Source of the DNA: Candidatus Aenigmatarchaeota archaeon
GTDB taxonomy: Archaea; Aenigmatarchaeota; Aenigmatarchaeia; CG10238-14; WAMV01
Reading direction: 5' to 3'
DNA length: 64,000 nucleotides
NCBI GenBank assembly: GCA_015522145.1
Contig: WAMV01000007.1
Coordinates: 1 to 64,000, forward strand
Each line of letters opens with the position of its first letter. Position 1 is the stretch's first letter. Shown here piece by piece: positions 1,764-45,655 of this stretch. The notes beneath the pieces are model-generated. The model worked only from the letters and a program-made list of their open reading frames with translations, had not been told where the DNA came from and made no database searches. A program made the translations under genes and the position numbers.

Positions 1764-1907
1764 CGCCCGGGGTGGGATTTGAACCCACACGGGGCAGAGC
1801 CCCACCAGCTTTCTGTGGTACTCCTTCTCTTCATTGCTTGGGCTCTGAGAGGCGAGCTTCTTCATAAACTCCAGGCTGGCGCCTTTACCTGGTTCGGCCA
1901 CCCGGGC
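1764..1907 (-). tRNA. tRNA-Ser(GGA) with 58-nt intron at 37/38 (intron 1811-1868)
   Basis: Acceptor GCCCGGG/CCCGGGC, anticodon stem CCAGC/GCTGG, loop CT-GGA-G|A, long variable arm, T-loop TTCAAAT, G73; no encoded CCA. Confidence 0.95.
1811..1868 (-). ncRNA. Putative intron-encoded box C/D sRNA
   Basis: ATGAAGA(1865-1859), 11 nt, CAGA(1847-1844), 9 nt, ATGAAGA(1834-1828), 12 nt, CAGA(1815-1812). Confidence 0.7.
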
Positions 1908-45376: not shown

Positions 45377-45384
45377 TTTAAAAA
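45377..45384 (+). promoter_or_regulatory. TATA box for the leader-tRNA-Ser transcript
   Basis: TTTAAAAA after a purine-rich BRE-like stretch; spacing at the other tRNAs predicts a start near 45408. Confidence 0.55.
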
Positions 45385-45406
45385 ATCAACCAAAGCAAAT
45401 TAAAAT

Positions 45407-45451
45407 TAGTCTCAAGGTCTGATAGCAAGATGATGAGCACTGGCTTTGCAT
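45407..45451 (+). ncRNA. C'/D'-type guide element in the pre-tRNA-Ser(UGA) 5' leader
   Basis: Guide TAGTCTCAAGGT, CTGA, 7 nt, ATGATGA, guide GCACTGGCTTT; guides complementary to 45483-45494 and 45550-45560. Confidence 0.8.
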
Positions 45452-45599
45452 GCCCGGGTGGCGGAACCAGGCTAACGCGCCGGCCTTGAGACTACCATGA
45501 GAATGTTGGCTTGACCCTGAAAAACATGATGATAAGGAGGTGAGTCGAGAAAGCCGGTGCCCCTTACGGGGCGTGTGGGTTCAAATCCCACCCCGGGCG
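45452..45599 (+). tRNA. tRNA-Ser(TGA) with 61-nt intron at 37/38 (intron 45491-45551)
   Basis: GCCCGGG/CCCGGGC, CCGGC/GCCGG, loop CT-TGA-G|A, central BHB helix CTTG/CGAG with 3-nt AAA bulge, long variable arm, G73. Confidence 0.95.
45491..45551 (+). ncRNA. Putative intron-encoded box C/D sRNA
   Basis: ATGAGAA(45497), 13 nt, CTGA(45517), 5 nt, ATGATGA(45526), 14 nt, GAGA(45547). Confidence 0.72.
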
Positions 45600-45655
45600 T
45601 AGAAATTTTAGCTATCTAAAGAAAGTTAAATTTAAATCTCGTGGAATTATATTTA

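Follow-up and report, generated by a model that had tools for sequence, protein, structure and literature searches.

The 61-nt intron of a tRNA-Ser(UGA) gene from a Candidatus Aenigmatarchaeota archaeon is laid out as a double-guide box C/D RNA and is the counterpart of Nanoarchaeum equitans sR13, an ortholog for which both 16S rRNA targets are already given by Seistrup et al. 2017 (PMC5389701). The best explanation, which we hold with good confidence, is that this sR13 counterpart guides methylation of A1408 and tethers the 16S tail in a DPANN-type archaeon. What is new is its home in a tRNA intron, the presence of the same single-copy RNA in introns of the 16S genes of relatives, and an order in which 117 of 118 genomes have no full-length match to RsmA/Dim1.

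The intron of tRNA-Ser(UGA) and its box C/D layout

The window analyzed here is the whole stretch of 64,000 nucleotides from position 1 of the forward strand of contig WAMV01000007.1 (GCA_015522145.1; GTDB lineage Archaea; Aenigmatarchaeota; Aenigmatarchaeia; CG10238-14; WAMV01). It is contig C7 of an assembly of 322,935 bases in 19 contigs, with 34% G+C and an estimated completeness of ~81%, and the genome alone represents its family within an order of archaea that have small genomes (relatives 0.4-1.7 Mb). The tRNA-Ser(UGA) gene occupies 45452-45599 (+), where the Rfam tRNA model (RF00005) scored 43.8 bits (gathering score 29). ARAGORN called the gene tRNA-Ser(tga) when introns were allowed (-i) and missed the gene without this option. 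Reading of the sequence shows a long variable arm and an anticodon loop, CTTGAG/A, interrupted by the intron before its final A, with the 5' exon at 45452-45490 and the 3' exon at 45552-45599. When 45380-45620 was searched against Rfam with E-values up to 10, the tRNA family alone rose above noise, and the two C/D-family rows returned, at 10-13 bits, fell in the 5' leader outside the intron.

The intron borders were derived by hand from a bulge-helix-bulge motif in which the anticodon stem forms the outer helix. In this drawing, a central 4-bp helix pairs 45485-45488 (C32 U33 U34 G35) with 45546-45549 (CGAG), the 3-nt bulges are AGA at 45489-45491 and AAA at 45550-45552, and the inner helix is an imperfect pairing of ACTACC with GGTGAGT. 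Cutting past the second base of each bulge yields the 7-base loop CUUGAGA, and the same cutting rule, applied by hand, recreates the intron-less sequence at two 16S intron sites of relatives. The resulting intron, between tRNA positions 37 and 38, covers 45491-45551 (+), precisely the 61 nt that a first-pass annotation of the window had assigned to a C/D RNA. That annotation had also cautioned that GGTGAGT can pair with the intron start ACTACC; the pairing is present, but it forms the inner helix of the splicing motif rather than a rival target. The minimum free energy fold (-59.7 kcal/mol, z = -2.55) pairs the region differently and does not reproduce the hand-drawn motif, and hand-drawing for family f4 and for the helix-45 16S sites gave no clean canonical splicing motif. 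The genome encodes both splicing endonuclease and RtcB ligase. Six DNA runs from two studies, with no RNA run among them, contain the sequence, and contigs from these DNA runs show strain variation and no splice or circle junction. One run contig (depth 4.4) joins 45471 to 45576, and this joint most likely comes from a different tRNA gene.

Along the forward strand, the intron reads through a non-canonical terminal box C (ATGAGAA, 45497-45503, placed by family alignment), the 13-nt D' guide TGTTGGCTTGACC (45504-45516), a canonical box D' (CTGA, 45517-45520), the 5-nt D'-C' spacer AAAAC (45521-45525), a canonical box C' (ATGATGA, 45526-45532), the 12-nt D guide TAAGGAGGTGAG (45533-45544), a non-canonical terminal box D (TCGA, 45545-45548) that overlaps the central helix of the splicing motif, and the intron end GAA (45549-45551). 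The first-pass string of boxes and guides is present letter for letter at 45497-45550, and its boxes C, D' and C' and its D' guide were retained. It had parsed the remainder as TAAGGAGGTGAGTC (45533-45546) followed by GAGA (45547-45550) as box D; we instead place box D at TCGA, two bases upstream, because of the family alignment and the 12-nt spacing. In 44 of 51 loci the D-box column holds CTGA, CCGA, TTGA, TCGA or GTGA, in every case 12 nt past C', and the fully canonical CTGA is found in L054, L066 and G001.

The same annotation had described the terminal boxes as degenerate, which is correct for ATGAGAA and TCGA and applies across the order, where terminal boxes are non-canonical and the C box of family f4 is degraded further. 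The C-box column nevertheless reads xTGAxxx in 38/51 family members, 11-14 nt upstream of D'. Both GA dinucleotides are kept in ATGAGAA/TCGA, with C5-D2 as G-C and C6-D1 as A-U, the latter pair being shared by 27 of the 31 loci with both terminal boxes. The D'-C' spacer varies in length and sequence in the alignment of relatives. DNA contigs of related strains (run X2) differ within the intron at 45522 and 45523 only, both in the spacer, and have 8 and 12 variant places in the two flanks.

Scanning this genome's 323 kb for the double-guide C/D layout returned three loci, this intron included, compared to 0 or 1 locus in each of 20 shuffled genomes (mean 0.35). Together with the order-wide recurrence in single copy described below, this result shows that the layout is more than chance. 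An ordinary tRNA intron that resembles a C/D RNA by accident would agree with the degenerate terminal boxes and with the targets being unseen in this assembly, but the conservation of both guides across the order while the spacer varies, the covariation with 16S, and the homology to an sRNA reported as expressed in N. equitans leave that explanation almost no probability.

Pairing of both guides with the 16S rRNA of relatives

Searches with the Rfam SSU and LSU models found no 16S or 23S gene in the 19 contigs, so the targets in this organism are inferred from the 16S genes of relatives. E. coli numbering was anchored on the ranges 1405-1415 and 1531-1540 that Seistrup et al. give for the homologous guides. 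Positions +2 to +12 of the D' guide are complementary to 1405-1415 of the relatives' 16S, and +2 to +12 of the D guide to its 3' end, TCACCTCCTTA. All 27 genomes with the RNA and a cognate 16S have contiguous pairing from +2 at both sites. For the D' guide, which starts at 1405, the paired stretch is 9 (20 genomes), 10 (2), 11 (4) or 12 (1) bases long, and for the D guide, which starts at 1532, it is 8 (14 genomes), 9 (5), 10 (1), 11 (6) or 12 (1). A per-position table was extended to 33 genomes by adding six that were obtained through a relaxed search or paired loci. There, D' guide positions +3 to +9 pair with 16S 1406-1412 in 33/33 genomes, with N+5 (T45512 in this intron) facing A1408; +2 and +10 are each paired in 31/33, and +1 is paired in 0/33, an unpaired first position being expected of C/D RNPs. 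The D guide pairs with 1532-1539 in every one of the 31 genomes that keep the motif.

Most relatives were gathered with a pattern that requires both guide cores, which means that core invariance is partly by construction and that the informative evidence is covariation. Three positions of the D' guide change together with 16S. The +6/1409 pair is U-A in 31 genomes and G-C in two (G038, G004); +7/1410 is C-G in 28, U.G in three and U-A in two (G109, G001); and +11/1414 is U-A in eight genomes and A-U in two of family f4. For the D guide, genus g5 (G038, G004; 16S at L001 2960-2990 and L002) is a natural knock-out in which the anti-Shine-Dalgarno and its complement in the guide were lost together: the 16S ends GGATCAC-TCAGCTAG with no CCTCC anti-Shine-Dalgarno, and the tRNA-Ser intron keeps an adapted helix-44 guide next to a D-guide region without GGAGGTGA. 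The three compensatory D' positions and this co-loss are comparative proof of both pairings. Both targets proposed in the first-pass annotation, helix 44 with +5 at A1408 and the anti-Shine-Dalgarno end, are therefore supported through the 16S of relatives and would, by extension, apply to this organism.

With the 16S of three relatives, the guide cores of this intron (+2 to +11) form 9-10 Watson-Crick pairs out of 10 at both sites, and the full guides are, by eye, complementary over up to 11 bases to the relatives' target sequences. The 16S of this organism would be expected to read GTCAAGCCA at 1405-1413 and TCACCTCC at 1532-1539 or, over the longer stretches, GTCAAGCCAA(C/T) at 1405-1415 and TCACCTCCTTA at its 3' end. 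Because box D is TCGA instead of GAGA, the predicted D target, facing N+5 at G45540, is C1535 instead of C1533. C1535 is the first C of the anti-Shine-Dalgarno CCUCC. When this genome was searched for perfect Watson-Crick targets of either guide, the only match was the intron's own antisense strand, along with many weak G.U-rich matches of the kind expected in AT-rich DNA. We also considered 23S as a D' target and rejected it; one relative's sense strand carries CTCAAGCCAA, which gives 9 pairs with a mismatch at +2 and no covariation.

Two alternatives accept the RNA and assign it another partner. In the first, AAGGAGGTGA of the intron RNA would occupy the anti-Shine-Dalgarno of the mature 30S subunit and tune initiation. 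The D guide is indeed an 11-base complement of the relatives' 16S tail, and strong motifs are rare, with GGAGGTGA occurring 6 times on both strands of the 323-kb genome versus 3.4 expected. However, the motif lies between boxes C' and D with the spacing of a guide, a single RNA joins it to the helix-44 guide, and the N. equitans counterpart goes with a methyl group at 1534 according to Seistrup et al., so that we regard a Shine-Dalgarno mimic as very unlikely.

In the second alternative, the intron would methylate its own pre-tRNA, as the tRNA-Trp intron does in Haloferax and Pyrococcus. Precedent favors such a role, since the archaeal intron-borne C/D RNAs covered in a review (PMC7994747) act on their own tRNA, and inspection by eye shows a possible pairing, with several G.U pairs, between TTGGCTT and AAGCCGG in the 3' anticodon stem. 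This pairing leaves +1 to +4 unpaired, however, and as judged by eye it is lost in relatives with other anticodon stems, such as f4, while the guide is constant. The guide covaries with 16S, the genome contains no perfect Watson-Crick target of either guide, and U34 has a distinct cis guide, located in the 5' leader. We therefore consider a cis-acting intron highly improbable. The leader element (45407-45436, +) is a half C/D element consisting of the guide TAGTCTCAAGGT, CTGA, a 6-nt loop TAGCAA, and GATGATGA. Its guide is complementary to the anticodon loop of the same pre-tRNA and to the first four bases of the intron, which places N+5 at U34. Families f1 and f3 and tRNA-hosted f2 conserve the element, and its guide covaries there with the first bases of the intron; the element is absent in f4.

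Guide-like sequences were also seen in other tRNA introns of this genome. The tRNA-Ser(GGA) paralogue at 1764-1907 (-) of the window, one of the three loci from the layout scan, has a 58-nt intron of the same layout, in the order ATGAAGA, guide, CAGA, spacer, ATGAAGA, GAAGGAGTACCA, CAGA. In two f4 relatives, its D guide and the 16S sense strand form 9 Watson-Crick pairs; this guide resembles the D guide of Neq sR14 as listed in PMC4644070. Outside the window, the tRNA-Thr(UGU) intron (C11 3257-3385) holds the guide CACGACGGTCAC followed by CTGA. This guide and the 23S sense strand form 10 Watson-Crick pairs in 5/5 relatives checked, and several tRNA introns of this genome thus seem to carry rRNA guides. 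The third locus from the layout scan, at C5 22027-22076 (-), is a fully canonical double-guide C/D RNA located directly downstream of an intron-bearing tRNA (C5 22084-22221); no target was found for it in the relatives' rRNAs that were searched. Four further tRNA introns of ~30-42 nt (C3 2983-3099, C8 5621-5737, C10 17769-17885 and C19 4778-4890) share, by eye, a stretch complementary to their own anticodon loop, then TTTGA, 3-9 bases and GATGA, a D'/C'-like loop that would place N+5 at position 34. The Gly(UCC) intron was rejected as a 16S guide; its 'guide' runs in the same sense as the 16S sequence to which it is similar and is therefore not antisense to 16S. At C12 22454-23157 (-), ARAGORN reported a tRNA with a 629-nt intron holding an open reading frame, and the ...IFDAEGS... 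motif in the encoded protein is one that we take to be LAGLIDADG-like (homing endonuclease).

Host genes, guide proteins and proposed mechanism across the order

BLAST searches of the 118 genomes of the order with the whole pre-tRNA, which use no motif, gave matches that continue through the intron in relatives, and both guide cores were present in 17/17 of the extracted matches. A scan with the pattern TGGYTTGAC-N(10-35)-GGAGGTG found the guide cores in 56/118 genomes, one copy each except for two in G096, compared to 6 matches for the reversed pattern used as a control. Among 253 sampled genomes of the class from outside the order, four contained the pattern and just one of these was C/D-RNA-like.

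Across 51 distinct loci the RNA is hosted by two kinds of gene, with 26 loci in tRNA introns and 25 inside the 16S gene. The 26 tRNA hosts, which have the anticodon loop CTTGAR and a long variable arm, come from families f1, f3 and f4 and from parts of f2 and f5. Inside 16S, the insertions use at least four sites, located in helix 45 and the 3' strand of helix 44. Seen from an insertion, the helix-44 target is 108-177 nt upstream (759 nt once) and the 3' end 67-134 nt downstream. Two of these sites are clean bulge-helix-bulge introns by hand, with splicing restoring GGGGCTA/AGTCG at one and GTCGTC/ACAAGG at the other (slash, junction). The 16S insertions near the 3' end and the long tRNA-Ser introns of DPANN genomes from metagenomes can now be annotated as guide RNA.

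The split between hosts raises a more far-reaching reading, in which a single-copy sR13-type RNA forms a mobile intron cassette that has shifted between the anticodon loop of tRNA-Ser(UGA) and four or more sites of the 16S 3' minor domain, and in which RNA rather than protein is the late small-subunit checkpoint. All of the 16S sites lie between the RNA's own two target sites, and one separates the decoding bases A1492 and A1493. Movement might occur by reverse splicing of the guide-tethered, possibly circular, intron into the bound rRNA, and the forms inside 16S would act in cis on their own host transcript. Taken jointly, these two propositions are a tentative idea that we think is rather unlikely to hold in full.

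The checkpoint part of this idea was examined by searching for RsmA/KsgA/Dim1 (PF00398). A full-length match was missing in 117/118 genomes of the order, and the one exception, G048 (180 bits, positions 6-260), has 6% estimated contamination. Other PF00398 matches in the order scored 20-37 bits, with 57 genomes above the cut-off at 24-37 bits, and covered the SAM-binding part only; the control genomes were positive in 14/14 cases. The notion of an RNA in place of RsmA/Dim1, earlier based on two nanoarchaea, now extends to an order of 118 species-level genomes.

As for the proteins of a C/D RNP, L7Ae is encoded in this genome, and Nop5 and fibrillarin were not found in its 323-kb assembly (81% complete). 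A 27.9-bit 'fibrillarin' match was set aside, as the 204-aa protein was read by eye as a protein-L-isoaspartate methyltransferase. Nop5 and fibrillarin are present in 40/40 sampled relatives with their genes adjacent, which means that a single assembly gap could hide both. The neighborhood of this gene pair is not conserved among relatives in the synteny comparison.

Under the explanation that we favor, in which the intron works as sR13 does, the splicing endonuclease would cut the pre-tRNA at the bulge-helix-bulge motif. Since box D and the 3' half of the D guide sit in the central and inner helices of that motif, they would be locked there in the precursor and sequestered until the intron is released. 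The freed intron, possibly circularized by RtcB, would bind L7Ae at two kink-turn motifs, followed by Nop5 and fibrillarin. Its D' guide would pair with the 5' strand at the top of helix 44 (1405-1415) and direct 2'-O-methylation of the decoding-site residue A1408, and its D guide would pair with the last 16S bases (1532-1542, the anti-Shine-Dalgarno) and may methylate C1535. The bound RNA would in this way hold both ends of the 3' minor domain and could delay their folding, a delay that would correspond to the RNA checkpoint proposed by Seistrup et al. for nanoarchaea that have no RsmA/Dim1.

Methylation at the D guide is the step for which the comparative data give another reading. Seven of the 51 loci have no GA-type D box and yet keep D-guide pairing, at 11-12 bp the longest of the set. 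This retained pairing and the one-base register shift relative to N. equitans suggest selection on tail pairing rather than on a particular methyl group, and the conserved role of the D guide may thus be pairing rather than methylation. Carried further, the intron RNA would be an antisense chaperone or maturation brake on helix 44 and the anti-Shine-Dalgarno tail that methylates nothing, either through the D guide alone or, in this organism, through both guides. Such a function would be in line with the failure to find Nop5 and fibrillarin in this assembly, the degenerate terminal boxes, the 7/51 relatives just described, a D register one base off that of N. equitans over an identical paired stretch, and the weight that Seistrup et al. 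(PMC5389701) give to delayed folding. Against it, C' and D' are fully canonical, and the D' register equals that of N. equitans, for which Seistrup et al. report Am1408 as stoichiometric. The adjacent nop5 and fibrillarin genes of 40/40 relatives could both fall into one assembly gap here, and the genome carries the fully canonical C/D RNA on contig C5. A role in pairing without any methylation is therefore unlikely in our judgment, and guided methylation of A1408 together with tethering of the tail remains the better account.

Comparison with sR13 and other guide systems

For N. equitans, supplementary file 1 of Dennis et al. 2015 (PMC4644070) gives 16S A1395, equivalent to E. coli A1408, as the predicted D' target of NeqsR13 and lists the D guide target as 'NP'. 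In the measurements of Seistrup et al. 2017 (PMC5389701), Am1408 and Am1409 are stoichiometric and Am1534 is present in the anti-Shine-Dalgarno; the authors assigned Am1408, presumably Am1409, and Am1534 to sR13, whose guides they place on 16S 1405-1415 and 1531-1540. In their proposal, sR13 holds back the folding of helices 44 and 45 and so serves, as an RNA, in place of the RsmA/Dim1 checkpoint that is missing. The intron RNA shares with sR13 the D' core TGGCTTGAC followed by one base and CTGA, which gives the same N+5 = A1408 register, as well as the D guide core GGAGGTGA, the box order and the single copy; N. equitans lacks RsmA/Dim1, and 117/118 genomes of the order have no full-length match to it. 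In contrast, sR13 as published is a free-standing sRNA with canonical terminal boxes, whereas the RNA described here is a tRNA-Ser(UGA) intron with ATGAGAA and TCGA. Its box D is one base closer to the core than in sR13, and the predicted target is therefore C1535, compared to the Am1534 measured by Seistrup et al.

Because the guide is already known as a free-standing Nanoarchaeum gene, the unusual part of the RNA itself is only its home in an intron. Our literature search retrieved no report of a C/D RNA housed in an rRNA intron, nor of a tRNA intron carrying a C/D RNA directed at rRNA; this is a weak negative, given that the term 'C/D' is not searchable. Known archaeal intron-borne C/D RNAs likewise reside in a bulge-helix-bulge tRNA intron and are freed by the tRNA splicing enzymes. 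They differ in that their targets, as reviewed in PMC7994747, are Cm34 and Um39 of their own pre-tRNA, whereas both guides of this intron are directed at 16S and the guide for U34 of its own tRNA is a separate half-element in the 5' leader.

The RsmA/KsgA/Dim1 checkpoint and the sR13-type RNA have the 3' minor domain (helices 44 and 45) in common. The checkpoint depends on a protein that dimethylates A1518 and A1519, whereas the sR13-type element is an RNA guide whose role as a replacement is a proposal made in PMC5389701. The arrangement is also an archaeal parallel to intronic snoRNAs, with an rRNA guide hosted by a tRNA intron and, among sister lineages, by introns within its own target rRNA. 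Like eukaryotic intron-encoded snoRNAs, it is a promoterless guide in the intron of a highly expressed host that would act in trans on rRNA; unlike them, its host is a tRNA, or 16S rRNA in relatives, and its intron is of the type cut by an endonuclease.
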